A DNA stretch of 63,363 nucleotides, filler included. It is 5 parts of 5 records of this genome, joined end to end, with 100 filler letters (N's around TTAATTAATTAA, not from the genome) between each part and the next. Parts side by side here need not be neighbours in the genome. Positions count along the whole stretch, not along the records: positions 1 to 16,213 come from SRR20825019_1862; 4 more parts are not named here. One strand, 5' to 3'. The notes beneath the pieces were generated by a model. The model worked only from the letters and a program-made list of their open reading frames with translations. It ran no database searches and had not been told where the DNA came from. The translations under genes were made by a program, and so were the position numbers. Below are positions 1 through 60,224 of the stretch, piece by piece; the first letter of the stretch is position 1, and each line of letters opens with the position of its first letter.

Positions 1-69
1 TATTTTATTTTATTTTATTTTATTTTATTTATTGATTTATTGATTGGTTGATTGGTTGGTTGGTTGATT
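1..69 (+). repeat. (TATTT)n microsatellite grading into ATTG/TTGG low-complexity sequence, probably intronic
   Basis: TATTT tandem copies at 1-30, then attgattggttg; followed by a pyrimidine tract and TTTAG acceptor ending at 93. Confidence 0.8.
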
Positions 70-93
70 TTGTCCTCACACACTTTTCTTTAG

Positions 94-1898
94 GTTACAA
101 TGAACAATATTATATTGTATCTGTTGGATCTGAACCTGGCGTCCAGAATGCGAAGAACAATACTATTTCGGGAGACAGACTTAGCTATATGATCTTGAAC
201 GATACCCTTTCTTCCGCATCGGTTGTATTTGCTACGGTTCAAGGATTTAGCGCATCGCAGGTGGGAGCTAGGTGTACCATTATCATGAAGCCCTTCACGT
301 CCCCGGACCCAGGCTGTGCTCCAGGACAGATTATGTGTGATGATGGTGTGTGCTACGACTATACACACACCTGTGCAACGACTAAGTCATGCCCGGCTGG
401 CCAGAAGCTATGTAATGACCTCTCATGCAAGGTCACCTGCAACAAACACAACGGCTGCCCCGTAAATGTGGCTCGCTGCTACACGGGCCGATGCACGACG
501 GACACATCTCTCTGCTCCATGGGATGTAATACAGGGCAGGTGTTGTGTGGAGGACAATGCAATGATCCGTCTTCGTGCACCTCCCCAAAGTCATCTCGCC
601 AACCTGTTGCTCAGAGTCTTCCTGCGTATGATTCTTCGGGCAGCCGCGTGCAAAGCTATGTGGACGTAGTAGACTCTGCCGATGACTTCCTGATGCGGGT
701 GACATTGCCAAGCAGCGGGATCGCATCTACTAGCGGGTCCACCGAGGTATATATCAATGTAGCGTCAGTGTCGGACTCGGAATATACGTCGGCAATCGAT
801 AGCTCGTTTACATCGACGGAGTATCTCGCATCTTCTGTAGTGGATGTGACCTTCCTTGATGCTGATGGAGCGGAAGCAGTCGTGAGCGGATCCGTTGACC
901 TGCACTTCACAGCCGATACCAATGCTGGTATTGCAATGAAGTTGCAATACCTTGACACCGCATCAGGGCGATGGGTCACTGAATCAGAATCGGTTGTAGA
1001 TGGCTCATCTACCACTGGGGTTAGCGGTACTTATTCGGCAACAGCAACTCATTTCACCGCTTATGCGCTGACCGGAGATGTAACCAGTACCAGTGCGGAG
1101 AATATTGCACTATGGGCCTCGGCAACGTTTTGGATTATTGTTGTCTGTGCATGCGTGGCGTGCCACATTGTCCTGTGCTGCATTATTCTGGTGACACCGA
1201 CTGTGATCCTGCCATGTGTTGCGCAGGCATTGGGCTGCAGCGGTATTGCCACCATCACGACCGGCTCAGCTTGTGCTTTCATTTGCACCACGATTCCATG
1301 CTGCGCTGGGTTCCGGCACGGAATGAAACACAAGAAGAAGCGCCGCCGCTATCGCAAGGAGAAGCTCAACAGGGTTGCTCCTGTGAATTCCTTTGGCGCG
1401 GAAAGTGATGATAGCATGATTCAAATAGACGCTGAAGAGATCAAGCCCAACAGGACTCCTCGAATCCCGGCGATTCTCAGCGCTAGGTCGGACAGCTTCA
1501 GGAAGGGATACAAGATTGCGGATACCGAGTCTCCAGCCCTTCCAAACAAGGGGTACAACATGTCTGATGAAGATTTTGGCTTTGATGAGGTGATTGTGCT
1601 GGATGAATACCAGGATTACAGCGACTCCCCTAAGCCGACTCGGGCATCCCCGGTCATGATGCAAAGAGCCAAGGGCTCAAGCAAGCACATGAAAGACAAG
1701 CCTAAGATTGCAAAGCGGCGCAGCGAAGTTGAAGGAACGCCGGTTTTGCCCTTCGAGCCGGATCCGATAGTAGAAAAGAAATTCGAAAATGACTTGATGA
1801 TGTATGACTTGGAAGAGAGCAGGCCAATGGAGGGCGATAGCAGGCCAGGTTTGCGTGGCTCGGTTATTGAAAAGTTGGGCTTCAGTGATAGTGACTAA
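94..1898 (+). CDS. 3' exon of a membrane protein: Cys-rich repeats, GPS/ZU5-like HFT motif, hydrophobic Cys-rich TM segment, low-complexity cytoplasmic tail (5' exons missing)
   Basis: ORF 48-1898 with a likely acceptor AG at 92-93; repeats CAPGQIMCDDGVC/CPAGQKLCNDLSC/CNTGQVLCGGQC; GRWVTE...ATHFTAYAL before the hydrophobic stretch; polybasic KHKKKRRRYRK stop-transfer. Confidence 0.7.
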
Positions 1899-2238
1899 GC
1901 AATGCTTGGTTGCGTCGCTCACACATAAAATGGCTGGGCTCATTAGACTGTCTCGTGCGTCATTTGTTTCATTATTGTCTTTCCTTGCCGCCTTCTGAGC
2001 CTTGGTGCCTCTAACATATTCGGTCGCGTGTCAGTACCAAGCAGTGTTGTCACCCAGTGCATCACCCTCGCAGTAGGGATTCGGTCTAAAAAAATGACCG
2101 CCTTTCCATATCTCACGGCCTCTTCGCCAAGGCTAGAAGCCGGCATTATTGGCACACCAAACACACAAATGTGGCATGCAACAGGTACTGCCACGCTGCG
2201 CCTTCCAAGAGTTCCTGGTTTCGTCAACAAGTCCAAAT

Positions 2239-3051
2239 TCAACTGGATCCTGCCTTGGCCTTTTTCTGCCGCTTTTTCTGTTGTTGATACGGATTCTTCC
2301 CCGACGGTGCTCCATGCTTGCCGTGCCCGGGTGAGTTCGTGTGGAGCTCCCTGTTCGTAATGGCCGCGGTGACCAATGGGCGTACTTTGCGTATCGTGAT
2401 GTGTATGCAAGACACGGCCCGCACTGAAGAAACGGTTTCGTGAGCAACAATTAAAGCACTTGCAAGAAGAAACCACCGCCGCACGAATATACTAACAGCC
2501 TAACCTACCTCTGCTGATCGGATCAAGCTCCTCGAATCCGGGAAGAGGCTCATAGTCGTCGACAACTTCGACGGTGCCGGTCCGTGGGCCAAGCGTGCAG
2601 GTGCTATCCTCATCCGCTAGTCTGAGAGTACGGGAGTTGGCCTCTTCAACACAACACTTTATATGGTGAACTTACGTCCGCGCCGCTGCAACAGCAAGGC
2701 CTAGGGCGGCACCCATGCCATGAAGAATAACAAAACTATCCTGTCCCTAATAGAGCGCAAACTCCGTCAACCTCATGACGACCAAAACGAAAGAGAAAAG
2801 AAAAAAAAATCACTTGATAACATAAGAAAATACAAATGCGCTTTCCGCACCTTGGCCAGAACTGCCCGTGCGCGTCTCAACACTGAGCCCATTCCATTTT
2901 TACGAGACACGAATATGTCGCGTTTCGACGCCGGGGTTCTTGTGGCAGCTCGGCGCACGTGGCGATAAACTGCTGGGTTTGGCTGTTTCTCTCCGTCGAG
3001 GTCAACATAGCACTCGTCGGTATCCATTGGGTCGTCAACCTCCTCTGCCAT
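2239..3051 (-). CDS. POP7: RNase P/MRP subunit Rpp20/Pop7 (Alba fold), 4 exons
   Basis: Manual splicing over 3 GT-AG introns gives YRHVRR..RDIFVSRK..LRRARAVLAK / FVILHGMGAALGLAV / GTVEVVDDYEP / VSCIHITIRK, collinear with Rpp20 motifs DIYV, IHGLGLAI, TVELVDELEP, SAIHIRV. Confidence 0.85.
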
Positions 3052-3119
3052 GATTTCGGACTATGTACCTTTAAGTCAGCGCTAAGGAGGACGCTCTTGT
3101 CAGGTCTATATGTGAACTG

Positions 3120-3500
3120 ACTCGGCCCCGGCACCGTCTGCGCGGCGCGGCAGCCCGGCCGGCCGGCTCGCCTGGCCGCGCGGGGGCCCGGCCCGGCGCC
3201 GGCCGCCGGGGCCGCCGTCACGGTCCGTTCCCCGGTACAGTACGGTCCGGGCCCGGTCCGGTGCCCGGTCCCCCGGGCAGCCGAGCCGAGCCGCCGCGCG
3301 CCGGGCCCGGCGCGGCGGGGCTGGCCGGGCCCAGGTGGGGCGGCCGTCCGGTCCGGTCCGGAGGCGCCGCCTCCCCCCGGCTCGGCCCGCGCCCGGCCGG
3401 ACGGCACCGTCAGTCCACCTGACCTGACTCCGACTCACTCGGTCCCCCGTGGAGGCCCGGCCACCCGCACCGGCCGCCCGGCCGGCCCGGGCTCACTCGA
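3120..3500. promoter_or_regulatory. Extremely GC-rich (CCGG/GGCC-rich) island between divergent POP7 and BRF-like genes; putative bidirectional promoter
   Basis: Almost purely G/C sequence, no credible ORF, lies between two head-to-head start codons; poly-T at ~3508-3524. Confidence 0.55.
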
Positions 3501-3718
3501 TAACGTTCTTTTTTTTTTTTTTTTCCAGGCCACCCGGTCGGATCCCGGCCCGTGACCGGACACGCTGGCAGGATGGCAAGGCCTGCCGGGTACTGACAGT
3601 ACCATAGGTCGCTAGAAGTATATTTCAGTCACCTGCCCTGGTAGGCCATCATCTATATTCGTGAACAAAGTTCGTTGGAGTAGCTGAAGGGACAGAGGTC
3701 AAAGCGACCGTCCCACTC

Positions 3719-5362
3719 ATGGAGAGTGGACTCACAGTATGCCCAGCATGCGGAGAAAGGGCTGTTTGGGAGGATGATGGGGCCGCAAACGGACAGGCAG
3801 GCTCTCGAGTGTGCGAGGAGTGTGGAGCCATTGTTGAAGACCCTGTCCCGCAACCACAAGGGTCCAACGGAGTCTTTGATGGGGAGGGGAGGTCGACTAC
3901 ATTTGTAGGTAGGAGCGGGCACAGCACGGGTCGGCGTGCAATGGGAGCACGGGCCCATGGCAGCCGGCCCGCTTTTCCGTCTGATAGTCGGGCGCAGGGC
4001 GCGAACAGGGCGCTCACGCGGCTTGGTGCCTTGTGCAAACTACCACGTTCGACCGTCGACCAGGCCAGGGCACTGGTCGAGAGATACACGGACAGGTGCC
4101 AGGGCCGGCGAATGGGGCAGGGATTGCGCTTTGAACATCTTGCTCTCGCAGCACTGTACACGGTGTCGCGTGTATCACATCCAGCCACGGGCACGCCTCC
4201 TGGCTGCGGCGGCAAGGAAGCTGGAAGTCAAACGATGACGTTAGGGGCGCGCACTGTTGCCAGGCCTGTAACACTGCGAGAAATGTCTGCGGCTGTAGGG
4301 TTCAGTGTCTATCATGTAGGCAGAGAATACGGCCGTCTCCTTCGTGGTCTCCAGCTGAAGGTAGAACCGGTGGATCCCGTCATTCACCTCGACCGGGTGC
4401 TCGCCGCGCTGAAACCTGCCATTGTTGGTCAGGAGTCCGGGTCGTTGTCGAAGGATCAATCCATTGCTATCGCGCGCACCAAAGTCCGGGCGACAGGGAT
4501 CCTTGCTCTTTCCAAAGAGGATTCTCTCACCACGGGACGGCAGGCTTTGGCTCTGGCAGGCGCAGCCGCTACAGTTGCTGCAACTGTAGAGCGAATGCGC
4601 ATGACGCCAGCCAAGGGAGTGTTGAGTAACAAGGACGCATGTGCGTTGTTGGGTGATGTGCCTTTGAAGGCGTTGAGTGCTCGGCGCAAGGAGATCCTGA
4701 ACAGCCTCGTGGCCCGGCTGGAGGTGCTGCCGTGGGGCGCGGGTGCTGTCATGGCTGGCTCAAAGGAAGAAGACTTGTGCATCTCGCTAGACCGCATCCT
4801 CATCCACAGTGTTGCAGGGGCACCCACTATTGGGGCACCGAAATCCAGTATGCCAGATCAGCTCGGCACTATATTTGCTAAGATAGAGGCCGCCGATGAT
4901 GAAACTATTGTTGTTTCCAGGGCATCTGTGAATCCCAAAGCATTCGAAGTAAGCAAGGAATCCCGCGAGCGTCGGCTTGCCAAAGTGGAGCAGGCCTTGC
5001 AGAGACTCGGTCATCTTGAGGACATGTCACCTGGGCCATCTGCGCCCAAGGGCCGATCGATGAAGAAGCGCAAAAGAGATGTGTCTAAGGTTGAAGATGT
5101 AGTCACTGAGGATCCTGATGCAAGCTGGGATGCCCCAAGCAATCCTGGCGGCAATGGCGACAACGACGATGAAGACGCACTGATAGAGCGCCTATTGATG
5201 GAGGGAGTGAGCGTGCAGGCAATTGTGGATGGGTACTTTGACTCCAAAGATCATATCCGACCTTGTCCTGGGTGGGCCACGGGCCCCGGTGCTTCCTCCA
5301 CGTTGACAGAAGAAGATCTTCCGGAAGAAGATTTAAGTCAGTACATCACAGATGTTACATGA
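3719..5362 (+). CDS. TFIIB-related factor (BRF2/BRF1-like), intronless
   Basis: N-terminal Zn ribbon CPACG...CEECG; cyclin-fold motifs ALAALYTVSR, PVTLREMS, VGREYGRLLRGL, PVDPVIHLDR, LTTGRQ; acidic C-terminal LPEEDLSQYI as in BRF proteins. Confidence 0.8.
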   Translation: MESGLTVCPACGERAVWEDDGAANGQAGSRVCEECGAIVEDPVPQPQGSNGVFDGEGRSTTFVGRSGHSTGRRAMGARAHGSRPAFPSDSRAQGANRALTRLGALCKLPRSTVDQARALVERYTDRCQGRRMGQGLRFEHLALAALYTVSRVSHPATGTPPGCGGKEAGSQTMTLGARTVARPVTLREMSAAVGFSVYHVGREYGRLLRGLQLKVEPVDPVIHLDRVLAALKPAIVGQESGSLSKDQSIAIARTKVRATGILALSKEDSLTTGRQALALAGAAATVAATVERMRMTPAKGVLSNKDACALLGDVPLKALSARRKEILNSLVARLEVLPWGAGAVMAGSKEEDLCISLDRILIHSVAGAPTIGAPKSSMPDQLGTIFAKIEAADDETIVVSRASVNPKAFEVSKESRERRLAKVEQALQRLGHLEDMSPGPSAPKGRSMKKRKRDVSKVEDVVTEDPDASWDAPSNPGGNGDNDDEDALIERLLMEGVSVQAIVDGYFDSKDHIRPCPGWATGPGASSTLTEEDLPEEDLSQYITDVT

Positions 5363-5583
5363 CAGAGCGCGATCCAGGTTTAGTCTCCATCTTGTTCGAC
5401 TTCCCCACTGCTGCTTTCTCCGCTGTAGCTTTCCGAGCTCTCGTCATCTTGGTAGTCAGTGGCATCATCCATCGAACTCCCGCCAGCCGCATCGAAAACA
5501 AAGTCCACCGGTTTTACCTGTCTTTTTCCTGGGGCCCGCGGAGTTGTCACTGCACTGAACTGTTAATCTTGCGATTCATTAGG

Positions 5584-6361
5584 TCACCCTGAGGCCCAAA
5601 TTTCCCTACCAATGTTGTAATATAGCAATTCGTTCGAGATATGTTGGTATGCCCCTTTGCCCTTGTTTTTCTTTTTTGATGGTGGGGGTGGAGGGGGCTC
5701 TTCGCTACTTTCGCCACCATCTCCACTGTCGTCCTCGCTGTCCTCGCTGCCATCACTACTATACATTTCAACACTACTTTCATCTTCGCTTTTTTCAACC
5801 GGTTTCGGGGTCGATTTCTTCCCTTTGGAAGAGCTGGCACCCGTGCTTTCAGTCTTTGTGAGATTTTCTCCTCCCCGCTTTTTTGCGCCTGGCGATCGAC
5901 CGCTTGGTGGTGGCATTTTGCACGGAACCCTTGTACACCTAGACGCACCTACATATTGTATCATGTATCAATATTCATGTGTATAGTACTCTTTATCACA
6001 AACACATACCCTTGCTTTTCGGAGCCTTGCTCACTTCTGAAGGGGCGTTCAGCCTTTCTTTCTTCGTAGCAAATTTCTTTGCAACCCCCTTCTTCGCTTC
6101 CAGCTCACGAGACGGCATTGATGAGGATGTGCTCCGCTCCCGCTTGGACGAGCGCAACTTTTGGGACTCTTTCCCTGTCGCTGTTGCTGTGCAGTGAGAT
6201 CGTTTACCCAGATGCCTTTTTTGCGGTGTAGTCGCATTTTCCTCTAAAGAAGTGACTTTTGCAGCTTCCTCCTTTGACGCCTTTTTTGCTGGAGTTCGCG
6301 TTGACTGCACGCTCTCAATGAACTTCAAGCTCGGTGCCCTTGAACGAACTGGCCGAGGCAT
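5584..6361 (-). CDS. Hypothetical Lys/Ser-rich low-complexity protein, at least 2 exons; ends uncertain
   Basis: ORFs 5996-6361 and 5584-5964 joined by a GTATGT...TAG intron; basic and acidic tracts; no recognisable domain. Confidence 0.45.
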
Positions 6362-6529
6362 ATTCTCTTTTAAGTGTCTTCAGCACGGGATGTTCGTGTA
6401 CATCTTACTTTATTTCTCTTTGGAACTTTCGCAGGTCATTCAGTCCAAGTAGGCGGAAGCGGGAGACCATGAGAGTAGCGCGAGTGAAGTCAGATCAGGT
6501 GGTGTAGCCATGTAGTGGGCGATGACCCA

Positions 6530-7045
6530 GCAGCTGTCCGGCCGTGCCGCTCATCAGCAAGGCAACGCACAACCGCGGGACGGGCGGTGTTGGACAAGCG
6601 GACTCGGTCGCGCGGCGAGTCACCGGAGGGCCCCGGGTGGCCCGCCCGGCGGCCCGCCCGCGCCCCGGGGCCCGGGTCGCCGCGGGCGGCGGGCCGAGGG
6701 GAGGCCCCGCGTGGCGGCGGCCTCCTCAGCACGTCAGTTGCGGGGGCCGGGCGCACACGGATCAGACTCCACGAACGCGGTCAGCGCGCTATCAAGTTTC
6801 GAGGAGGAACTCGGCCCTAGGCTAGCCAGTGGTGCACCCGACCAGCAGCCACGCGGCGTCATGGCACTGCCAACACTGGATGACTGATGACAGGGCGAGC
6901 ACACCGTCCCGCGCGGGCCGGACGGGGTTCTTCCGGTCGGCGTGACGTCCCGGATCAGAGACCCAAGTAGGTCAGGCCCCCGCCTTAGCGAGAACAAGCC
7001 GTGCACTGCCGCTCCTAGCCTCAGCACTAGACATTGGGGCGACAG
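6530..7045. promoter_or_regulatory. GC-rich island upstream of the minus-strand hypothetical gene
   Basis: Same CCGG/GGCC-rich composition as the other 5' islands; only spurious Pro/Arg/Gly ORFs. Confidence 0.45.
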
Positions 7046-7046
7046 C

Positions 7047-7091
7047 CCCCTAACCACTAACCAGTCCCCTAACCACTAACCAGTAACCAGT
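7047..7091 (+). repeat. Tandem 19-bp repeat CCCCTAACCACTAACCAGT x2 plus partial copy
   Basis: Exact copies at 7047-7065 and 7066-7084, then AACCAGT. Confidence 0.85.
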
Positions 7092-7196
7092 GCCACCGAC
7101 AGGTTCTGCCCGCGGTAGTCTCCACCCCTACGCGTTAACAAACGAAAGCACTCTTTTAATATTGTACTTCACAACCTCTAGAAACGGGTGGGACCA

Positions 7197-8452
7197 TTAG
7201 GTGGACTTGCTCTTGCGCCGATCACCAACATACTCATCAAAGAGCTGAGGATATGTCTTAGCCTGCTTCTTAAGGTGGCCCTTCACATCGCCAAGAAGGC
7301 GATCAAAGCCCTGCTTGTCCAATGAAAGCACAGTACACTTCGTCTTTGCTGTGACATCTGCTGCACGTGGTGCCTCGTTCAAGAGCGCAAGCTCACCAAA
7401 GTAGTCACCGCGCTTGTAAGACTTGACTTTTTCGACAGACTTGTCATCCTTAGTCACGCTGGCGAATGCCTCTCCCTTCTCAAGAATATACATACGCTCC
7501 CCGGTCTCGCCCTTGGTGATAATTCTTTGATCGGGCTCGAAGTATTGCGGTTGAAGAACATCAGCAAGATGACAGATGTTGTTCTTCGACATTGGCTCTG
7601 CTCCATGTGTCAATACGGAATTCAGCAAAACATATTCGACATTACGTACTCAGGAAAGGAACCTCTTTCAAGAACGTCTCTGCATCCGCAAGTTGCTGAC
7701 ACCATGTCAGTGATGGCAACCACAAGCCAGTTGGAACAATACCTTGGCGCGAAGGTCGATGCGCACACGCTGGAAAGTCCCACGATCCAGCTTCCATAAC
7801 ACGCACTGTTTCTTTGCCTGTAGTTCCATCAGTTTCGCCTGCGCCTCTGGTATCTCCATGCGCCACCACGCTTACCTGAACAGTGGCAGCACGAGGGGCA
7901 TTGTACATGAGCGCAAGCTCGCCGAAGTACTTCTCTTTACCAATAGTTGCCTAAGATCACCACGGTGAGGTTCATTGAAATACCAACTGTCAGAAACATA
8001 CAAGGTACTTCGACTCTCTCTTAGGATCTTCTTCGTCATATTTGTAAATATCACACTCTCCACTCTCAATGATGTAGAAGTAGTCAGCAGCCAAACTACC
8101 TTGTTCGATGATCTTATGTCCAGCCTTCTTTACCACTTCTTTACGCATGACGTCGATAACCTCGTTCATGGTCTCCTCGCCTGTACCTTCGAAAATAATG
8201 ATCCCAGAAAGGACCTTCTTGAGCCATTCTCTATCTTCATCGCTACAACGGAAAGTTTAACTTTTGCTTTCGCACTAAGAAGTACCAACCGTACCTCTTC
8301 GGAAACTTGGATGCCTTAGCACCAGAACTTCCTGGGACTTCAGCACTCACACCGCTACGGCGACGATTCGCAGGAGGCACCTTGGCCTCGCCTACAGTCT
8401 CTACTTCGAGTTTGTCCGCCGCACCCTTCTCGCCACCACAAACTTGGCCCAT
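7197..8452 (-). CDS. cAMP-dependent protein kinase regulatory subunit (two CNB domains, no D/D domain), ~6 exons
   Basis: MGQVCG N-terminus; inhibitor site RRRSGVSAE; CNB-A YFGELALMYNAPRAATV; CNB-B YFGELALLNEAPRAADV; five ~50-nt GT-AG introns restore the frame. Confidence 0.92.
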
Positions 8453-8639
8453 AGTTAACACTCTTTGCTTACACATGCAGGGATAGTGTCACTAATATCC
8501 ACAGAGAGCTACCCAGCCGCACACACAGCGAGCGTCGCGCGCACCATGACGTCAGCCGGCGCTCTTTCCGGTATTCCAGCCAACCATCGGTCAACCCACT
8601 ACTGTGGCTTTCCGAGCACTGAGTGGTTTGGAGCTCAGG

Positions 8640-9450
8640 CCGAGCGGGGTCAAGTGTGTCACCGGGTGGCACCAGACTGAGCGTCGTCAGCTCGGCCGCC
8701 TAATGATGACAGTAGGTCACGATCTCGCCAGCGGGCGCCGGGTCACCGCCGCGGAGGGTTTCCGTGGAGAGGGCCGGGGTCTGCTGCACGCTCAGACTGA
8801 CCCCCCGCCCGGCGCCCCGGCACTGCAGGCTTCAGCTAATCAGGGACCAACGAGGCCGCGCTCGCACTCATCATCAGGGCACCGGCAGCGCAACTTTCGT
8901 CAGCGCCGGCCCCACCCCAGTCCTCCGGGGCCGCCCGCCGTGCGGCTCGCTGCCGGGACGGCCTGCCGTCAGCACTGCTGGTGCCTTGCTGGTGTGAGTG
9001 AGATGCACCTTCCTTGCCCCTCAACCTAAATACTTTTGCGTCGAGATATATCGTTATATTGAGAGTTTATAGTTTGCACGTAGCAATTAGAGCTTTCAGA
9101 CATCATTTGAAACGGCCAGACCCAACACACCTTCATCAGGGAGTTGTGGCAAGTTCAAAGTAGTTGTCGTTGCCCCAGCGGGTGCAGCCTATCATGGACG
9201 TGGCGTGGACTCAAATGGACTGGCTGGCGCCCAGGCCGGTAGGGCTGAGTCGTGGTGATGGGGTCACCGGCCGCCGCCACCGGCCGCTCCTGTAACAGGC
9301 AGCCGGCCGGACCGCCACTGCTGGGCCGAACTAGAGCTGGTCGCAGCCGAGTCCGCCGTTCATGTGCGTTTGGCCAAACAAATCAGTCAGGCATGGACGG
9401 ACAGTCGGCCGCCATGTCCATCTCCGCAGTCCCAGCACGCGTTCGCAGGC
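8640..9450. promoter_or_regulatory. GC-rich bidirectional promoter region between PKA-R and the divergent tubulin
   Basis: Two GC-rich blocks (~8640-9000 and ~9220-9450) around a more AT-rich core; genes are head-to-head. Confidence 0.5.
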
Positions 9451-9523
9451 CGGCGAGGGAATATATGTCTCCGAGACATCAGTACAAATGTCTGTAAACA
9501 AGTTCATTCCCTTTAGTGCAGCT

Positions 9524-11517
9524 ATGCCTACCGGAGGTGAAGCCATATGGTTTCAAATAGGTGGCGCAGGAAACGCCGTTAGCGGAAACTTCTGGTCTCT
9601 ATGTGCAGCGGAGCATGGCTTGTCATTGGCGGGTGAGCTCGTCACCAACTCTGTAGAAGAGTCTCAGAAGAGGCATGCATTCTTTCAGGAGGGTTCGGAC
9701 GGTATGGCTAACGATATTGTGGCTATGGGTCGCTTTGGCTAACTGTTGTTTAGGCACTTACACCCCACGCTGCATTGCTGTCGACTTTGATAAGGCATCC
9801 TTGGAAGATCTTGGTAACCAGCATAAGTTCTTAAGTAATGAGCGCATCAGTCACGTAGCGGGCGAAGGGAAAACAAATCTTGACTACATGCAAACGAAAA
9901 CTCGCGTTGGTCCTGAGCTCTCGGCCCCCCTAAAAGAGGCTTACAGAAAAGCAGCTGAGAGGTGTGACAGGGTTAAGAGTGTGAACCTTTGCTACAGTTC
10001 TCCAGGAGGAACTGGCGGGCCGGTTGCACAGTGCATTGATTTCGGGGATGACGGGTTGGAGTGCTCTTTCGATGGGGCTGTATTAGAGGGTAACAAGGCA
10101 GGGGTCAACCACTACATAATTGGTGCAGACTCAAAGGTTGATAGGCTATTGAGGACGCGAATGAGGAATAGTGCGTTGACAATGTACCAAAGACTTGACC
10201 CGAATTCAAACTCGACCGTCGTCCTCTTCGACAACAGCCACTATGAGAGAACTTTGGCTAGCTCGGGAGAGGTGTTCAAGGTGTCACAGCAGGGCATGAA
10301 CTCGTTGAACAGCGCGCGCGCCCTTGGGCAGCGAAGGAGGAATAAGGGAGTGGGGTCAAAGGCGGACCCTTCATCCCGGGCGGGAAGCTTTGGAGTTAAC
10401 TTGCACGAGAAGGCCCACTTGTTGCTTGGAGACAAAATGGCAGAATACTTACAGGATAGTGTATTCCCCACGTTGGTCCCCGCATTAGAAGAGCTGCTGT
10501 ATGGAGTGAAGGATGCGTGCTTAGATTACTCTGACAGACTCTTTGGTGATCGGATGAAAACTGAAATCCCCGATGACTTTGATCCCAAAAAGTTCCTGTA
10601 CACGTATCTCAAGTCACACAACCCCTTCACCATTGCAAAGGAACGTGCTTCTTGGAACGCACTAATTGCACAGTCCATTGCCTCGGCCACCGCTCCTCTT
10701 CGCCTTCCATGCATCAACTATAACGATACCTCCTATATGCAGAAGGTATCCTTGAACGGACAGTTCCGCCTTATGAGCTGTGGATTGTGCCCTTTATTCA
10801 TAGAAGGTTAGTTACTTTCAAGAGCGAGCTTAACCTTTTAATAACCTCATTACTCTGCAGACAATATTGTGCAGTGGCCTCAGGTATTTGATTCTGAGTT
10901 CTTCCCTGCATCCAAGCCGAGTGGGCGCCGCACTTGGGGAGATACCATTGTTTCGTCGTTTTCTATGTACCGGGGCAATGATGTGAACGTTGGTGATGTA
11001 AACGAACAGTTGATGACTCTTGGAGACAAGCAAGGTACAAGTGATATAGGTTAATTTGTCAAATGCATCTAAAGGAATATTTCAGAGGAAAATGGAGATG
11101 TTTTCAGGAGATACGAGTTCATCCCTGCGAATATGACGGGTGATGCATGCACATACGCGGCTGGTGATCAGCAAAGCAGCGTTTTCACGGTTGCTGTTTC
11201 GACTGGACTATCCAACGACTTGGAAAACTTGGCGAACGTGTTGGACACATCGCTCCGTGAAGTGGATCAACATCTTGTAAGTTGTAATGCTTGTGTGTTA
11301 CGAATGCGTTTGTTTACGACTCTTTCAGCTGAATCAGTTGGACAAAACGGGTGGGACTTCCCTTCTTACGGCAGCGAGAGGGCTTCGTGCTGAGGCCAAT
11401 AAGCTCCGCTCTTATTGCTGGAGGCCGAAGATCCCTGGTCAATCCAATGCTGCGTCCTACAGTGAAGATGAAGCAGAGGTTGATGAGACACAGAACGGTG
11501 TTGAGGTTGGCGTGTAA
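9524..11517 (+). CDS. Highly divergent tubulin-family protein with an inserted Dpy-30/RIIa-like D/D motif; 5 exons
   Basis: Exons 9524-9701, 9754-10806, 10861-11034, 11086-11276, 11329-11517 (all GT-AG). Collinear tubulin motifs: EAIWFQIGGAGNAVSGNFWSLCAAEHGL, FFQE..GTYTPRCIAVD, RKAAERCD, SPGGTGG, LFDN, NALIAQSIASATAPLR, MYRGNDVNVGDVN, acidic C-tail. Confidence 0.85.
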
Positions 11518-11609
11518 CGAGATCGTTTAGGCAGAAATAAACCTTGTTTGTTTGCTTGCCGCAATTATAATTAATTAATCACAAGAATATCGAAAGTTAG
11601 TGAACTGGT

Positions 11610-11960
11610 CAGAAGAGGGCCGCCGGACAAGCGATTCTGCCCACGGGAGTGACGGGGAGCCCCCACGGCGATCATCCAGACCGCCGGGTGGCCGGCCGAC
11701 CGGCGCAGTCCGGCGGTCGGCAATCCGGCGTGCCCAATCAATTTGAACTGAACGGCGCCCCCAAAAATTTTTGGGGCCGCCGGTCCGCCGTCCGGAGAGT
11801 GCGGGTATGGTCCCGGGGCCGCCGCGACGCGGTGCCAGGCCCGGCCCGCCGGCCGCTTCAGTTTTGCCGCCCCGCACTGCATGTTCGGCTGGATGGGAGG
11901 GGTTTTGCGGGCGAGGCGGCCGGGCCGCCGGTTACATGCTGTCCGCCGACGGATTCTGAG
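11610..11960. promoter_or_regulatory. GC-rich island upstream of the gene at 12138, containing a 30-bp palindrome
   Basis: Composition; CGGCGCCCCCAAAAATTTTTGGGGCCGCCG at 11753-11782. Confidence 0.45.
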
Positions 11961-12137
11961 CAAAAGCCATTCTTGCCGTAGTGTCTCAACATGTAGCGGA
12001 CAGTCTAGCTAGGCCCTAGCAGCTCGTCAGTGTTGTGAAGCCCATGTGAAGCCTTTCAGATCGCCTTCTAAGAACTCTCTCTCTCATCATATATTGGTAC
12101 TGTTTTTTACCAAACACCACGTGTGCGAGCGTTAGGC

Positions 12138-13428
12138 ATGCCAGTGTCTGGAGGCGCCGCACCTGGCCGCGTAGTCCGGTTGCCGTCCAACTCCAGCGGC
12201 GACTCGGCTAAGAAAACGGTTGTGAAGATTCCTGCGTCAGCAAGATCGGAACCCGAAAAACAACCACCTGCAGTGTCAAACAAGGGCCCCCGCATATCAT
12301 GGAGAGAAGATAAGTACGTGCTTTTGCAGGTTGCCATAGGAATATGCTGAACTGTGAGTAGGTACCATGTTGTTCTAGGAAAACCGAAGAACCTGTATGG
12401 CACGAAGCCTCAGGTGGCCACTGTAGTTCCGGAAAAGCGCCCGGTTGTAAAGGCGGAAGTGAAAGTAGTTAACAGCGCAGGCGGGAGCCAGGAGGTTCCT
12501 ATTCAGCAAGCTGCGCCTAGTTCCGGGATCACAAAGAGCAAAGGTGAAACTGTATTTTATTTAAACTGGTGAAGGGGTTTGCTGACACCACTTGCAGTTG
12601 TCTTGGGAGGTCAAGGGCCAAAAACCCCTCAAACAGGGCCAACTGAAAAGAAGGTCGTCACCATTCCTAAGCATGTAATTTCTCCTCAGCTGAAACCTGA
12701 AGATCCTCCGAAAGCACCAAGGGTTGCATGGCCGGATCAAAAGTACAAAATCACACCGGGCAAGCCAAAGGATCTATATGGCCGCTTAAACGAACGGAAG
12801 GTGTGTTTGTTGCAGAGGGGGGTTGCTCATGGTCCCTGAAAGAGAGTATTTCAGAGTGAACAGGCAGCTATCGATGCGGGGAAGGTAGTTGAAAAGGATG
12901 GGTAGGTAGAGCTAGTGCCGAAGAATGTTGTGGTATCAACCCTTACCCAGGGTAAAAATTGTCAAGGGAAAACCTAGGAATCTGTACCAAAAGGGAAAAT
13001 CAGTTTCTGCACCTGAACCGTGTGCCATTTGTTTTCATATGCCGTGATAGAATTACTGATCAGTTTTCTCAGCATTCATGATAGGCTAAGTGTCGACGGA
13101 GGGATCAGCACCAAAGATCTCAAGTCTAGTAGGGGCGGCCTCAGTGCAAGGCCCTCGAGTGGAACAAAGGAGGGAGGTCGATCCATTAAGGATCGGTTGG
13201 GGGAGAATTCAGCGAAGAACGCCAATCAGGTTAAGCGCAAGTTTAGTGATGGGCAGCAGAAGCGTAAACGCTCTGATGGGGACGGCAATAGCTCCGCCGG
13301 CTTTTCATCTGTGGTATGTTGGCCTGTTGTTCTAAACACTTGCCTTCGCTAAATATCACATACAGGATGTTCCACTGGAGGCGCTAATCGTAGGTAACAA
13401 CAAAAAGAAGCGTCGTTCTTTTGGTTAA
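12138..13428 (+). CDS. Hypothetical basic, Pro/Lys-rich multi-exon protein with three GKP[KR][ND]LY repeats
   Basis: About six short GT-AG introns join the ORF fragments in frame; ends KKKRRSFG* (NLS-like). Confidence 0.6.
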
Positions 13429-13506
13429 AAGATTTCGTTGCTCTCCTTGACCGAAATATTTTTGTTTGGCGTGTGTTCACACGTGTAAGGATTGGTTGCT
13501 TGGTGA

Positions 13507-15295
13507 TTATTCCGGATCCACTCGCATCGGTGAAGTGCTGCTTGACTCAGACACGCGGGCGACTAACCACTCAGAGGAAATTTGCGGCGCGTGAGCATCG
13601 CATGTTAGCAGTGCACCGTTTCCTTTGCTGCCAAGGAACGTTTGCCCTCCGCTATCCATGGCAAACCGAACCTAGACCGGCATCAGAAGACATTCGAAGA
13701 GCTACATTGGTCATCATCAATACATACCACACCGCCACTTTGAACCCAGAAGAACACCGTTGCATCTTTACCAAGCTTGGTTAAATTATGCCTAACAGGA
13801 TTCATATTTAGATACCCTCCTGCATTCTTGTTAGGAATTGACAACAGCCCCAGTGGAGTTTAACGACAAACCTCCGTGTGAACTCCAAAGCACAACTGGA
13901 TTTCCAACATCAATGTGTGTAGTATCCGTAGGCTCCATCGGGTTTATCAACACCCACTCCTCTGCGAAAGACGGGTACGTTCCTCTAGCCGCAACCCCCT
14001 TTCCATAACCATCACCATCGGACAGGTATTGTTGATTCATAAGGCAAACCAGGGTGACCACCTCATGGTAAACAAAACTGCTTTGGGTTGGCACCATATC
14101 GCCACGTGAAAGTTTGAGTCGAGTGCTTTCTGCCAATGCCTTATCTTGCCCTCGGAGAGCCTGCAGATGCACTTGCCGTTCGAGTTCTCGAGTATTAGTA
14201 ATGGACTTCCGCGCGTTGGCCTTAATCCTATCGAGCTCGAGAGCATCCTTTAGGCCGTTCGGATTCGAAGAGACAACCCCAACAACGCCAGGTGCTGTCG
14301 TGTTGTGGCCATCCAAGACAACTGTCGGACTCGGAGAATCCTTTGCTGCTGCATCCTGAGCGCGCTGCAACACCTTAGAGGATTCTGACGGGACCACATT
14401 ACTATGTTGAACAAAATCGGCCACACGATGTTCACCGGACTCCCACGGTGGAGTTGATGGCCTGTCTTCTATTGTGGCCTTGAGGTCCCTCGATGTGCTG
14501 CAGTAGTTGCTTCCTGACTTCTGCCTATTCATCTGGTTCTGCAGCTCAATCCAAACAATATCCTCAAACTGCCATGGCTCAAGCACGTAGTCCCAGACCT
14601 GGAGATGACACAATAGTCCAGAGAGATAATTCTTCCACCGGTGGTCCGTGTTGCAGCACCTCCAATTTGTCACATCCGGAAATCGACCATAGTTTGGCTG
14701 CCACTCTACTTGTCCTACAAGGTTGTCTCCATGACTTTCCGGCAAGTACAAACGAGCGACTCCATCCGATACCGTAATCACGACAATGTAATGTTGATGG
14801 GGAGACGCACGCACCCCAAAGGAGGGCGTGCCATCCTTGCAAGTGTTTCCAATCCACCACTCCATATTCTTCAATGCCACTCGAAAGCCCCCACAACTTC
14901 CCTTTATCCCACGAACCAATATGTCCTGAAAACCATTCGGGACCTCTTCATCCAACCGCAGGAAAAAGCTCACGGTAAAACTCGGAAAGAACCTATCGGG
15001 AGGCGACATCTTAAACTGACCAGTGGTGTCACGAGTCAATGGCTAGCGAAACGCGTTTAGTTAAGTTAGGATATGAATGAGTGCACACAACTTCTTTACA
15101 TACATCGTACTGCCATTCACCCACAGCTGGAAGAGGCGGGGTGTTTCCACGAATTTCGCCTCCTTTGCGTTGCAGCTCTTCATCATTAACAAGGGCCGAT
15201 TCTCGAGATGGAGTAATAGTGGGATCATTGCGAGCAGCGGCAAAGGCGAGCACCGCTAAAAGGAATAGCGAACAACCAAAGAGACGGTATCCCAT
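13507..15295 (-). CDS. Secreted protein with LamG/concanavalin-like domain and C-terminal beta-trefoil (fascin-like) region, ~4 exons
   Basis: Signal peptide MGYRLFGCSLFLLAVLAFAAA; SFTVSFFLR...HYIVVITVSDGVARLY...GLLCHLQVWDYVL LamG pattern; introns near 15040-15100, 13820-13870, 13670-13725. Confidence 0.6.
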
Positions 15296-15439
15296 GCTGC
15301 CGATTTCTTTTTTACCGTATTCCACTAAAGACTCTCTTTTGGATGTGCAGCTACAAAAACAAGTGCCTTTTATACGGAGCGCGCGGGGTTTGGGGTGGCT
15401 ACAAGAGCTGCGACACAAGTCTAGAGTGAGTGGGGGTTC

Positions 15440-16213
15440 GGGAGCACCTGTTCCGGGGTCGTGCCCAGTGGCCGCTTTCGTGTCACAGCCTGGCGCCGGC
15501 CGTGCCAGTGAGTGTGACCCGGGGCCGGGGAAGCCGCCGGTCATAACGCACCGGATAGCTAGTTGGGTCGTTCAGTCGGCGACAGCGCACCGGCGGCCCG
15601 GTTGTTGTTGCCCGGCCAAGATGGGCCACGACCCCGGCACTCACTGCACCGGCAGCACCGGCGGGCGGGTACGGATTCGGAAGCGAAATCTTACCTACGA
15701 CCTCTCTATTCTATCTCCTATAGTATCTCGAATCTCGAGATGAAATTTGACAAGCGGTTGACACAATGTAGCAGTTGATTACTGACTTTGCTGCGGTGGT
15801 GCACCAGCGGCACGGGCGACCCTGACCGACCTGGGGAGTATTGCCGGCGGGCGACACTGGAGGAGGGCGACAAGGCCGGGACCATCACGCCGTCGTCCGG
15901 TCCCGGCAGCGGCGGCACGCCGGCGCCGTGCGGGCGCCCGGCGCACCGGCCACAACAGTGTGGGCACGGCGGAGGATGGAACTGCTTCCGAGCCGTAGGG
16001 TGGCGTGCCAGCCGGAGACCGGATCCGGCAGCCGGGAGACTGACACTGGCTGAGGGTTCACATCCGCGGCCAGCTAGGGTGCGACAGTCGTCCCAGGGAC
16101 ATGCACTGTCCGCGACCGTGTCGCCGGCGAGCAGCGCCATCCGGCAGCCCCCGGCTCACCCCGGCCGCTGGCCGCCGGTTAGGTGGCGCCGGGAGGGGGG
16201 GGGGGGGGGGGGG
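15440..16213. promoter_or_regulatory. GC-rich island upstream of the LamG gene, ending in a 19-G run at the contig end
   Basis: Composition and position 5' of the ATG at 15295. Confidence 0.4.
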
Positions 16214-16313
16214 NNNNNNNNNNNNNNNNNNNNNNNNNNNNNNNNNNNNNNNNNNNNTTAATTAATTAANNNNNNNNNNNNNNNNNNNNNNNNNNNNNNN
16301 NNNNNNNNNNNNN
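16214..16313. other. Artificial contig linker
   Basis: N44-TTAATTAATTAA-N44, stops in all six frames. Confidence 0.98.
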
Positions 16314-37694: not shown

Positions 37695-37794
37695 NNNNNN
37701 NNNNNNNNNNNNNNNNNNNNNNNNNNNNNNNNNNNNNNTTAATTAATTAANNNNNNNNNNNNNNNNNNNNNNNNNNNNNNNNNNNNNNNNNNNN
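37695..37794. other. Artificial contig linker
   Basis: N-run/TTAATTAATTAA/N-run. Confidence 0.98.
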
Positions 37795-40700
37795 GTCAGG
37801 ACGGGCATAGCTGGGAGGGTAATGGTTACGACGAGTGCGTTAACCTCACCAAGGTAGACGGTGAAAGGGGCGTCGCGGCTTCCACGGGCAAGGGCGATTC
37901 CCTCAACCGTGACACCGAACACAATCAGCGGGACCACATTGAACGTCACAACAGAATTGGCGAAGTCATCCTCGAAGTTTCCGGCGCTGGTAATGGAGGT
38001 GCGGTCACGCCACTGGAAACTGACATTCTGACTCGCTCCGACTCCAATGGCCGTCACAGTCAGCTCCTGGCTGAGGGGATCCAGCATTGCGCCCGTGCTC
38101 GTCGCAGACCACGACATCAGGGGTGATGATAGCGCGAGGGTCGTACTCGACTGCACGATCAGCTCCACGCTCTGGCCCGCGAGGGGGGCGGCGGTGATCA
38201 AGACGGGGATGGTCTGCGCATTCTGCCCACCAAAGTACAGGGTCGACCGCGTGCGGGACGTGTCGATCATGATCTTCTCAAGTGGTAGGAAGTACAGGTT
38301 GGGGATGGTGATCGAGCTGGGGCCGTTGAAGTCGACTCCTCCGCTCAGTGTGAAGGCAGCAGTGACATTGTTGACCACGCTGTTGCTGAAGATGTAGGCC
38401 GTCACTCGGATCTGAGTTCCGATCAGGATGGGGTTGCCAAGGTTGATTGGGATGCAGGGATTGATGGACGAGCAGTACGTCACGTCGTTGTTGGCAGGGA
38501 CAACGGAGATGGATCCAAAGATCGTCTGCCGTGGAATATCAAACTGCACGCGGAGGGCGTTGGTCTGCTTGATATAACCGTTGCGTCCACCGCCGGGCCG
38601 GGCGAGCGAGCTGAGTAGCTGGTGGCTCACGTCGAGGTTGTCAATCACTTCACATGACGATGGGGCCAGGTTGTCAAGGTTGTACTCGGACACACTGCCG
38701 CTGAATCGAAGGGTGATGTTGGTGGCGTTGGTCAGTGCGACACCCTTGATGAAGAAGTACTGTGTCTTGGCAGTGTACTGCCCAAATTGCAGCTGCACCA
38801 GCGGGAATCGAAGATACACGGGGTCGAAGAGGGGCTCCACAACGAGCTTGCCGCGGGACGGGAGCTCGCTGAGCGTGATGGCAAACTGTCGCTGCGCCTC
38901 CACCTCGCCTGGCACAACGATGTAGGTCGCAGTTAACACGGGGTAGTACACGCGCTTCTTTGGCGTCGCAATGATCGAGAAGGGTTCTGGCGCGGAGTAG
39001 GTGGGGTCGGGAATGGTGCAGGTTATTACGGTGGAGCCAGAGGACAGGGGGGTCACGCGAACCTCGCTTGCGCCGATGATTGTCACGGAGAACTGGTTGG
39101 ACGACGTGATGCATCGGAGCCCGGCGACAGCAGGGGTGATCACCACGGTGACCAACTCCTGCTCCACCACCTTGAACTCAAAGTCACTTGGCGCCTGGGA
39201 CACCGGCTTCAGAGCAACAACAGCCATCGACTCGGACGCGTCCATAACTCGCATGGCGATTCGCGTTGGTGCAGACACGATGGTGTACTGCATGTAGCTC
39301 ACGCGGGACGTTGGATACACACCCTGGATCGAAAACTGCTGCCACCGCTGGCCTCCAGCCGCGAAGTTGAGGACTGTGGGCGTAAGAATGAAGGCTGACG
39401 TCTCACCTCCCACGCTCAGGTACAGCGACACGCTGGAGTTGTCGGGGATGGTCACGTTGATAAGCTGCTTGTTCTCCTTGTTGACGTACAGCTCCTTGGG
39501 GGGTATGGTGAAGTCGATCAGCAGCAGGGGGCTGACGCTCACGCTCACAGACCCGGGCCAGCTTCCAACGAGATCCTTGCCTTCTCCCTCCACGCGGAAC
39601 ACAATCGTCACAGGCGCGGCGCTCGGGGACACTCCAACAATGTAAATGAACTGCTCAACGGGGCTGTCCGCGGACCACTGCAGCCGCTCGGGCTGGATTC
39701 GCACCTCAGGGCCGGTGGACTCGGGCACAAGCTCGAAGGACGCACTTCGCTCGTTGCCGAGCTGCGTGGGAAGCGATGAGACGTCGAAGAAGACCTGGAT
39801 CTTGTTGGCGTCGCCCTCGAACAGCTGTGGTGGCACATCCGTAGTCTGGCGCACCTGTATGAGCGGCAGGAAGTTAGTGAGGTGGTCGGGGATCGTGGAG
39901 CCGCCAATGAAGTTGGACGTGATCGTGAAGTTGAAGCTAGCGATCTCGGTGGCGTTGTTACTGACCTCGATCGCGATCTCACTGCGGGATCCGTAGCCCC
40001 AGTGGAGCTCGCGCTGTACCAACGCAGACCCGTTCGTGGAGATGGTGATGTTGACGAAGTTCAGCTGGTCGAAAATGGTCTCGCGCAGCGTCAGAACAGC
40101 AACCTGTGGGGCAGACCCGGCGTACATGGCGGTCGGCCAGTCAATGGCAAAAGGCGTCGGTTCGAGGGTCACGAAGTTGCGATCGGCAACAACTCGACTG
40201 TACTCGTCCACGGCTCCCAGAACGGTGAACGTCATGATGTGTGGGGGGCACGCGCGAATTACACTCACCCCAACCAGCTGCTCCACTGGTGCCAGGGGGT
40301 CGTCGCCATTGAACTCCACCTCGGTGCGGTCAAGCGCAATGCATTCGAGGCCAAGATCGTTCAGCTCTGGCTCCAGCCGCACGAACAGCTGTGTCCCAAC
40401 GCTTGGGATGATTCCAACATTGACGCCGATGGAGTAGCGGACGCCCTTGATGAGCTCGTATGGCATCTGCGTCGTCGAGATGGTCTGAGGGACGCTGATG
40501 CTGAGCTCACCACTGTACGCACTCGTCACGAACCGGTACGACCCGCTGACATCCAGCCGGATATTGAAGTTTCCACTCTGCTTCACAGCCGTCAACTGAA
40601 TGAACTGCTCGCGACCAACCGTGGTCGACGTCCACGAGATGTTCTGTGGCGTCCACGACAGGGAGTTGTTGGCGCCCTCCCACCTGGGGGCAACAGTGAT

Positions 40701-46700: not shown

Positions 46701-47123
46701 GGTCAGGGGTTGGAGAGCGGCTCCGTTTGGTACACCTCCACACTTCACTGAGGTGGAGATGGAGAGGCTTCCAGCCGAAGGGGCAGACCCAGAGGTAGTG
46801 ACGGTGACATCAACACCCTGGCGAACGAACAGAAGTGTTGCGTTACTCGTGATGGACACGGTCTCGAGGTTTCGGACAGACACGGTCAGAGTGTCGGTGA
46901 TGGGCGTGTATTGGGCCGATGCGGAAACGGGGAGGGAGAACGAAAGCGTGGTGGCGGTTGGGGCACGAATCTCGAAGCACATGGTCCGCTGCGACGTGCC
47001 TACGAAGCTCAGCGATGAAACATTTGTCACTACACCAGGTATGGTGGTGTTGATGGTTGCAACAGTGTTGATCTCGCTGGCCGTCACGCACGCAACGAAG
47101 GGGTTTTGATTCGTAGCCCCCAC
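37795..47123 (-). CDS. Internal fragment (>3100 aa) of a giant Ser/Thr/Val/Pro-rich surface protein with tandem ~100-aa Ig/Calx-beta-like repeats
   Basis: One uninterrupted frame across the whole contig; recurring [LMV][YF][VI]G...V.L...P...V.P...P..L.F...F.V.[AG] pattern. Confidence 0.8.
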
Positions 47124-47223
47124 NNNNNNNNNNNNNNNNNNNNNNNNNNNNNNNNNNNNNNNNNNNNTTAATTAATTAANNNNNNNNNNNNNNNNNNNNN
47201 NNNNNNNNNNNNNNNNNNNNNNN
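47124..47223. other. Artificial contig linker
   Basis: N-run/TTAATTAATTAA/N-run. Confidence 0.98.
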
Positions 47224-51000: not shown

Positions 51001-52492
51001 TGACAACACCATTACTGAATGGTATGTATCGCCGGAGTTCTGCTTGACGGTCCACACCCCAGTCACCCCGACATAGTCTGGAGATGTACTCCCCAACTTG
51101 GCGACACCCATGCCGCTTCTCAACGCCCTAACACACCCAGATTCCTCCTGACCCGTGCACATAAACAGCTGTTCCTGCTGTCCATCCCCCGCGTTTGCAA
51201 TCACAAAGTCCCTTGCAGGTGAGAAATTGGGAATGCTGGTGCGATGCTCCAGCGAAAATGGAACCGCTTCTGAGGGAATGATCTCAAAGACCCCGCCATC
51301 ACAGAGATCACCTGCCATCACCACATGCCTGTCATTGAGTATCGCCATGGACGATGTCGAAGGAAGTGTGCCTTTTCCAATCACCTCCGCACACACCAGA
51401 GACCGCCGCCCGTTCGGCCCTGGGCCGCAAGAGAACATGTTGAGGCTTCCCATTTCAGTCGCGACAAGGATGCGATCCTCACCCAGCTGTGCACTGGAAG
51501 TCATCAGGAGCGGTTCTGTAGAGCAAGTTACCTCGCCAGTGAACATGACCCCCGCTACTGACAACTGATACATGTAGGCTCCTCTCTCATGGAGGAGAAT
51601 GCAGCAGTCGCCGAACAATCCAGTCGTTGGCACGATGGAATAAACGTCGATAGAGCATGGGACACCATGGGTCCACTCGATGGTATTGGACACCATGTCA
51701 TAGCGCAGCACCCCCAAGGTCCGCGCAGCCTCGTGGGAGGGATGATACAGCACGCAGAGGGTTGCCACCTCGTCAATGATCGGCCCGCACCATTCCATAC
51801 ACAAAACGACACCATTCACCGTTGTCTTCGCCTCTGCTGCAACAATGGCGTCTGCATCATCAGACGGCCGGACTGAGTACACTCGCAGCGTATGCTGCAC
51901 AGACGCCACCGCCATGGCGCAACCACCTGCGTGGACGGCAAGGGAGTTTCCGGCACTGGTCCGGTTGTGCCCGTTCGACAGTGTGATGGTGGACAGATTT
52001 TCAAAGCGAGATTTTTCTGAGTTGTATCCTACAAGGACAAGCTTGCCCGACACGGAGAGCACAGCGAGAAGATCCAGCCCAGCATACTGCCGGTGCCCCA
52101 AGTCGTTGCGATATTCACCTGTGATGGCACCGTCAAACCGCTGCCTGGCAATGCCATACGAATACACACCTGCCCAGGGTAGCTTTCTTATTGCTCTAAC
52201 TGTATCAAATAGGGGCTGCTGAGCCACGGTGCACAAAGCCCCGCTCTCATCCACAGTGTTTATCTCAAGCACATTTTCCTGCGTGGAGACATGTCAGTCA
52301 TGCTTGAGCGAGCTCTTTAGACAGTGAGATACATACCCGAACCAGAACCACACCCGAACTCATGGGGTTGATGAGTCTCGCCACAATCACGTGAGTCACC
52401 GCGCTAGCATGAGCAACACTACGAAAGTATAAACCCCACTCTGGAGAAGCCTGCTGCGGAGGCGCGGAAGACCCAGCCGTGGCCGTCGCCAT
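48085..52492 (-). CDS. DDB1/SF3B3/CPSF1-family triple beta-propeller protein, multi-exon
   Basis: DLLAVLSVSGKL, PNFSPARDF, CTG....VRALRSG, GVTGVWTVK, VVVGLRNG, LALSDRPWL, C-terminal IDGDLTSQYLDL. Confidence 0.82.
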
Positions 52493-58334: not shown

Positions 58335-58336
58335 GG

Positions 58337-60142: not shown

Positions 60143-60224
60143 CCGCTCCCTTTCATTGACGGTCGGGCATTGGCGGTCGGGCATTGACGTTCCGGCATTG
60201 GCAGTCCGGGCGGGCGCGCGTCGG

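Follow-up and report, generated by a model that had tools for sequence, protein, structure and literature searches.

A spliced, divergent tubulin-superfamily gene with a long insert before helix H7 and a candidate DPY30-like motif within it

Tubulin is among the most constrained of eukaryotic proteins. Paralogues outside the alpha-to-zeta families are rare, as are large internal insertions, and such tubulins are as a rule the sign of a specialised microtubule structure. Protists are known to have lineage-specific divergent tubulins, as the titles and abstracts of two reports indicate (PMC3382179, PMC9081340). Dimerisation and docking (D/D) domains of the DPY30 and RIIa kinds belong to a different set of described systems. 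In bovine sperm, EFCAB5 has a DPY30 motif that forms a dimer with AK7's DPY30 domain and is docked on CFAP91, according to passages of the structural reports (PMC11779644; PMC12423330), and PDB entry 9fqr, from one of them, is the bovine sperm 96-nm repeat (PMC11779644). The literature that combines tubulin with DPY30 or RIIa terms is, by its titles and abstracts, about radial-spoke proteins. No tubulin-D/D fusion appears in those titles and abstracts, in a survey of the literature that took in a tubulin-family review (PMC4202323) by term search and lay outside supplementary files, which could hold lists of divergent tubulins. Here we describe a gene at positions 9524-11517 on the + strand of a 63,363-nucleotide (nt) stretch of DNA, the window, along the whole of which all positions are counted. 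The original prediction, made from the letters of this stretch, read the gene as a divergent tubulin with a Dpy-30/RIIa-type D/D domain inserted between helices H6 and H7.

The gene, its transcript and its tubulin core

The gene is real, transcribed and spliced as predicted. Its five exons (9524-9701, 9754-10806, 10861-11034, 11086-11276 and 11329-11517) join into an open frame of 594 codons, and its four introns (9702-9753, 10807-10860, 11035-11085 and 11277-11328; 52, 54, 51 and 52 nt in turn) all begin with GT and end with AG. Only one public sequencing run with this stretch was found, run X1; its kind is unrecorded, and no run is catalogued as RNA. A 1850-nt contig of run X1 maps to 9496-11530 on the + strand with no differing letter and no gap, and it lacks exactly the four predicted introns, which bears out the five-exon splicing of the original prediction at every joint. 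Exon 2, including the whole insert, is unbroken in the contig (9753-10804, again with no differences and no gaps). Because this spliced contig retains the insert, the insert is part of the mature RNA; the outcome that would have spoken against the prediction here, an insert spliced out, is not what the contig contains.

Directly 5′ of position 9496 the contig carries 24 loose, adaptor-like letters, which we recognise as the end of a SMART-type template-switch oligo; the run is therefore taken to be complementary DNA (cDNA). The transcript probably starts at position 9496 or close to it, and the ATG at 9524 is the first one downstream of that position. At its other end the contig reaches 11530, 13 nt beyond the stop codon.

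Judged by its sequence, the product is solidly a tubulin-superfamily member, genuine but very divergent. Searches of Pfam, the PDB and the large protein libraries, and AlphaFold2 (AF2) modelling, were run on exon pieces, and the spliced product of 594 amino acids (aa) was analysed locally. The Pfam Tubulin family (PF00091) matches exon 2 alone at 36.4 bits against a gathering cut-off of 33 (E 8.6e-9, profile positions 43-129), and exon 1 at 21.8 bits (E 2.5e-4, positions 2-37), collinear with the exon 2 match; exons 3-5 match no tubulin family in Pfam. In phmmer searches of the PDB, exon 1 aligns with residues 3-53 of tubulin chains (best E 7.5e-5), and its best 60 chains are tubulin-family without exception, gamma, BtubB and Asgard tubulins included. 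Exon 2 aligns with residues ~59-151 (best E 0.019), and 59 of its 60 best chains are tubulins. Exon 3 and exon 4, each used alone, gave no tubulin match in the PDB.

The spliced protein was compared with tubulins drawn from metagenome contigs, where a degenerate motif pattern gave at least 118 loci. Of these, 38 open reading frames (ORFs) of 425-470 aa that start with M[RK]E and contain GGGTGSG were kept, while 80 loci were dropped as partial or broken by introns. Against a profile of the 38 alpha/beta tubulins the spliced protein scores 66.4 bits (E 1.2e-22, for one target). The first hmmsearch domain, at 59.6 bits, is the match to the N-terminal GTPase domain: aa 6-150 (9539-10025) lie on profile columns 3-147, across intron 1, and PGGTGGP stands as the T4 loop. 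The second domain places aa 360-470 on columns 225-339 at 4.2 bits, collinear with the first. In hhalign, aa 5-550 align collinearly and in one piece with columns 2-401 (probability 97.8, E 8.4e-13), with an identity to the tubulins of about 25%.

Pieces of the protein were also aligned alone by hhalign against the same 38-tubulin reference. The first 150 residues give a probability of 98.3 (E 1.1e-14). From the piece aa 351-594, aa 359-491 align to columns 224-355 (probability 89.5, E 2e-6, score 50.1), from H7 to past the YRG..DV motif, and not one of 100 shuffles of this piece reaches that score (mean 15.4, standard deviation 2.9, maximum 31.4). The corresponding match to H7 and the intermediate/C-terminal domain, aa 360-491, occupies 10653-11153 and spans introns 2 and 3. 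No significant tubulin alignment was obtained with aa 151-232, aa 230-358 or aa 470-594, and no similarity to tubulin could be detected in the last ~100 aa. Because these other pieces align non-significantly when taken alone, collinearity is significant only for aa 6-150 and aa 359-491. The prediction of collinearity from end to end thus stands for those two stretches and is not borne out for aa 151-232 and aa 470-594 taken alone.

The exons divide this protein unevenly. Exon 1 encodes aa 1-59 plus 1 nt and holds, by its Pfam and PDB matches, strand S1 to helix H1 of tubulin with the T1 loop GGAGNA. Exon 2 encodes aa 60-410, that is, the remainder of the GTPase domain, the insert, and H7 with the strands that follow it, as placed by Pfam, the PDB and the tubulin profile. 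Exons 3 and 4 encode aa 411-468 and aa 469-532. Exon 5 encodes aa 533-594 plus the stop; hhalign detects no tubulin similarity in it, and its translation ends in an acidic tail (11455-11514).

The protein was also described originally as alpha-like, and that label found no support. A profile of 26 alpha sequences scores 60.8 bits and one of 12 beta sequences 56.9 bits, the two sets being told apart by a rough N-terminal pattern that put at least one sequence under the wrong label. When 86 tubulin ORFs were compared one by one in phmmer, ten of the eleven best scorers were beta-type (GQCGNQ), the top one at 52.8 bits; the best alpha-type ORF reaches 47.3 bits. The best PDB matches are a mix of alpha, beta, gamma and Asgard tubulins, and gamma chains score like alpha and beta. 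By these scores the protein is not assignable to alpha or to beta, in a comparison that covered these two classes and the gamma chains of the PDB.

The GTP-loop motifs, as aligned, are degenerate. In the T1 loop, GGAGNA takes the place of GQAGxQ in the profile and so departs from GQxGxQ. GGGTGSG in the T4 loop is the PROSITE-type tubulin signature pattern; the profile carries it, and PGGTGGP in our protein keeps four of its seven positions and lacks the full signature. The T7 region, INYNDTSYMQ, has a gap at the catalytic position of the profile, and no acidic residue aligns at T7/H8.

Relatives were sought widely. Exon 2 found no homologue among the 192-613-aa proteins of a collection of 5.8 billion, and none at E<=1e-3 among 1.84 billion representative proteins of any length. 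Queries with exon 1 and with the insert found no homologue among longer proteins. Metagenome contigs yielded 76 pattern-matching stretches, none of which was confirmed as a related locus, and tblastn found no paralogue elsewhere in the window. By these searches the protein is an orphan within the libraries covered, which may hold few protist proteins. We read the five-exon gene as encoding a lineage-restricted, 594-aa member of the tubulin superfamily, one that keeps the core of the fold in its N-terminal nucleotide-binding domain and in H7 with the intermediate domain.

The insert before H7

The first matched domain ends at aa 150 and H7 starts at aa 360; the 209 residues between them compare with 77 columns of the tubulin profile. 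About 130 residues between the T4 loop and H7 are therefore extra, and the predicted insert of more than 100 aa is there. The whole intervening stretch, aa 151-359 (10026-10652), has no significant tubulin alignment by profile or hhalign; it presumably begins with the equivalents of H4-H6 and continues with the insert. NSALTMYQRL...VLFDNSHYERT falls opposite T5-H5-S6-H6 of tubulin in non-significant alignments (the second stretch of a PDB match, at -1.5 bits, and MAFFT). The motif-level alignments agree with the predicted placement, in which LFDNSHYERTL is H6 and the insert lies between H6 and H7, and none of them is significant. The insert most likely sits in the H6-H7 loop. In every layout (whole, trimmed and fragment sets) MAFFT put the tubulin rows in the wrong place beyond H6, and the glocal hmmalign alignment did not bridge the insert.

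The insert is laid out as a basic low-complexity stretch (~aa 230-283) followed by the segment 10437-10625, which runs from AEYLQDSVFPTLVPALEELL to FDPKKFLYTYLKSHNP; translation puts this motif where it had been flagged. At the insert's start, MAFFT and one PDB alignment both set QQGMNSLNSARALGQ (10224-10300, aa ~235-252) against the beginning of tubulin H7, and the significant H7 match lies 120 aa downstream of it. QQGMNSLNSARALGQ may be a remnant, either of the original H6-H7/H7 junction or of a partial duplication.

Several observations point to a DPY30-like module in the second part of the insert. Dpy-30 (PF05186) is the sole Pfam family that matches the insert, always over profile positions 4-21 of 42 and always on YLQDSVFPTLVPALEELL (10443-10496), the putative helix 1 of the motif and the only part of it that this family matches. 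The score is 12.5 bits with exon 2 (E 0.12), 15.5 with a 132-aa piece (E 0.014), 17.1 with a 74-aa piece chosen post hoc (E 0.0046) and 16.6 with a 24-aa piece (E 0.0064). A candidate helix 2, FDPKKFLYTYLKSHNP (10578-10625), carries the pattern P..FL..YL...NP. In the AF2 monomer of the 74-aa piece (predicted local distance difference test score, pLDDT, 74.4), residues 4-43 form a helix and residues 57-68, after a loop, another, so that candidate helix 2 is modelled as helical. With the same piece, phmmer aligns both helices to residues 171-223 of the 1509-aa chain 9fqr_Xl (E 0.15-0.52), the common pattern being YL.D..PTLVP..E..L ... IP..FDP..L..YL...NP. The PDB match table names this chain 'A-kinase anchoring protein 14'; from its length we guess, as an unconfirmed assumption, that it is EFCAB5.

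The insert would accordingly consist of a basic low-complexity linker and a helix-loop-helix whose first helix is DPY30-like. That it is a Dpy-30-type D/D domain with D/D function is a tentative reading of these matches, with a chance that falls just short of even. Part of the predicted D/D nature stood, weakly, in the Dpy-30 match to helix 1, which lies below the cut-off; the helix 2 pieces and the Foldseek comparison gave it nothing.

The strongest alternative has a good chance too, somewhat under even. It holds that the gene is a fast-evolving, lineage-specific tubulin paralogue whose insert is a disordered or helical expansion without D/D function, its likeness to Dpy-30 being due to chance. 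Lineage-specific divergent tubulins in protists, as titles and abstracts report them (PMC3382179, PMC9081340), fit such a paralogue, and a series of results weighs against a D/D domain. No Dpy-30 score reaches the gathering cut-off of 22, the match covers half of the profile, and the unbiased E-value, the one from exon 2 and not from a piece chosen post hoc, is 0.12. Two pieces covering helix 2 found no Pfam family, and 28-aa pieces around helix 2 and around helix 1 each found no PDB match. In one search an unrelated RNase HII (E 0.047) outranks the 9fqr chain (E 0.15); because this chance match scores higher, the 9fqr match is at noise level. Foldseek with the 74-aa AF2 model returned two PDB matches at E<=10, neither of them a D/D fold; this is a weak test, because the model is a monomer of a would-be obligate dimer. 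With the insert as query, the ESM Atlas yielded clusters that are all bacterial or viral and whose family is unrelated or unknown. About 27 residues link the two helices, many more than in canonical DPY30 domains. The searches gave no orthologues in which the motif might prove conserved, and the left edge of the insert is fixed by no significant alignment.

Pfam scans of the insert found no RIIa family at E<=10. The ESM Atlas gave no usable match with exon 2, and the AF2 model made from the single sequence of exon 2 had a pLDDT of 35.8, too low to use. A complex prediction with two copies of a 96-aa piece of the insert gave a score of 0.01 and a mark of 0.32, with the partner fold uncertain, and so speaks on neither side about binding.

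Chance likeness must also account for Dpy-30 being the only family to match the insert, and for a second helix that follows in the right order, is predicted to be helical and carries P..FL..YL...NP. Moreover, a long loop within a true D/D domain would lead to just such a half-profile match.

It is improbable that the gene is a decaying tubulin duplicate, transcribed yet non-functional. The degenerate GTP-binding motifs, the last ~100 aa with no tubulin similarity and the failure to find a homologue among 1.84 billion representatives are what decay would leave behind. Against it, the 594-codon frame is open over five exons with four precise splices, the contig and the genome agree without a mismatch, and significant alignment persists over the helices and strands of the core.

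Finally, there is practically no chance that the insert is an artefact, an overlooked intron or a misassembly within exon 2, as the cDNA-type contig is continuous through exon 2 and a genomic origin of the run would leave four clean GT..AG joints unexplained. An unspliced intron in exon 2 is ruled out by the same contig.

We return to the reading of the insert as a D/D module. The H6-H7 loop of alpha and beta tubulin is found next to the luminal taxane pocket, at the longitudinal interface that faces the plus end. A module of 130 residues at H6-H7 would hinder head-to-tail assembly on that face. Because the loop lies at the longitudinal interface, the protein is unlikely to be an ordinary lattice subunit. 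The tubulin-fold module might instead be paired or docked through its helical insert, in the way that DPY30 and RIIa domains sit on the amphipathic helix of a scaffold. A non-canonical tubulin-fold protein paired or docked in this manner is possible, at nearly but not quite even chances on our analysis. What the sequences show is the gene, its splicing, its tubulin homology, and how long the extra segment is and where it lies; a D/D character of that segment, a partner for it, loss of polymerisation and any ciliary role are inferred. The most specific version, in which an internal DPY30-type module in the H6-H7 loop recruits a non-polymerising tubulin fold onto an AKAP-like (A-kinase anchoring protein-like) amphipathic helix, for example in the flagellar or apical complex of an alveolate-like protist, is unlikely, if worth stating.

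Neighbouring genes and the rest of the window

The window contains four linkers, at 16214-16313, 37695-37794, 47124-47223 and 56850-56949, each made of 44 N, TTAATTAATTAA and another 44 N. The TTAATTAATTAA linker is a six-frame stop spacer. Because of these four linkers the window is to be read as a chain of five separate contigs, and adjacency across a linker is meaningless. The tubulin gene lies on the contig that makes up window positions 1-16213, so only the genes in that range are its true neighbours. The content of guanine plus cytosine (GC) differs between the pieces, about 0.5 in some and 0.6-0.66 in others.

Head to head with the tubulin gene and upstream of it, at ~7197-8256 or, by a wider estimate, ~7197-8488 on the - strand, lies a gene for two cyclic-nucleotide-binding domains, which are divided among its exons. 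In the PDB it best matches a TGME49 (Toxoplasma)-tagged chain and chains named as putative regulatory subunits of protein kinase A (PKA) and cGMP-dependent kinases; these matches weakly hint at an alveolate-like source. The presumed N-terminal ORF of this neighbour (starting MGQVC...) has no RIIa domain. It does contain a stretch RRRSGVSAE, which resembles a PKA inhibitor site. A gene like a PKA regulatory subunit, without a D/D domain, thus adjoins a tubulin gene with a D/D-like insert. Also on this contig is a TFIIB-like ORF at 3665-5362 (+ strand), with weak Pfam matches to a zinc ribbon and a TFIIB repeat.

Both flanks of the tubulin gene are GC-rich (9180-9480 and 11600-11950, with GGCCGG-type runs), and the GC content of the gene body is about 50%. 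Positions 11750-11785 form a 36-nt palindrome. A repeat scan around the gene found nothing relevant, and an Rfam scan of the window had no matches. The contig ends in a poly-G run at 16196-16213, probably a sequencing artefact.

On the other contigs, an ORF of the CPSF1/DDB1/RSE1 type, a double beta-propeller by Pfam, lies at 50683-52293 on the - strand. This ORF and the TFIIB-like one bear out a eukaryotic origin of the low-GC pieces. A stop-free frame of 3142 codons on the - strand (37743-47171) fills an entire contig from linker to linker, and it matched no Pfam family at E<=1e-3. The GC-rich piece 56950-63363 carries packed, apparently intron-less genes on its - strand, for a MoCF_biosynth (molybdopterin-binding) protein, a GHMP kinase, a long tetratricopeptide repeat protein and a polyprenyl synthetase. 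This piece looks bacterial and may be a contig of a contaminant or symbiont.

Comparison with described tubulins and docking proteins

If the insert is a true D/D domain, the gene would be the first case of a tubulin-D/D fusion and would exemplify a tubulin paralogue put to a new use, as a non-polymerising part on a scaffold. The tubulin fold would then be placed in a new way, by docking on a scaffold helix rather than by polymerising, and the docking partner would serve as a handle for finding the structure involved. If the insert is not a D/D domain, the gene is still a clean orphan tubulin for the study of tubulin evolution.

Misato/DML1 has a tubulin-related N-terminus broken up by non-tubulin segments, as is the case here. 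We rejected this identity: Pfam reported no such family for any exon at E<=1, and the N-terminus matches true tubulins, over residues 3-53.

The divergent tubulins of protists, such as the beta-like tubulins of Tetrahymena and the mitotic tubulins of Naegleria, have in common with our gene that they are extra, lineage-restricted, non-canonical paralogues. As their titles and abstracts describe them, they stay recognisably alpha- or beta-type, and no internal docking-type insert is mentioned there.

With the alpha, beta and gamma tubulins our protein has in common the collinear N-terminal GTPase domain and the H7/intermediate domain, the GGTG core of T4, an FDN at the expected H6, the N of H7 and an acidic C-terminal tail. 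Unlike them, it has degenerate T1 and T4 loops and about 130 extra residues before H7, and its similarity in H11-H12 is undetectable.

On the side of the docking domains, the D/D of PKA RIIa offers the same general idea of a helix-turn-helix module, and the insert matches no RIIa profile. EFCAB5 and AK7, docking proteins of radial spoke 3, have a helix of the form YL..V.P.L..L followed by one of the form P..FL..YL..NP, and both patterns can be read in the insert, in an alignment to the 9fqr chain at noise level (E 0.15). In the 9fqr chain, too, the linker between the helices is lengthened, and that of the insert is longer still. In DPY30-motif proteins the motif stands at a terminus, whereas the candidate motif described here lies inside a tubulin fold.

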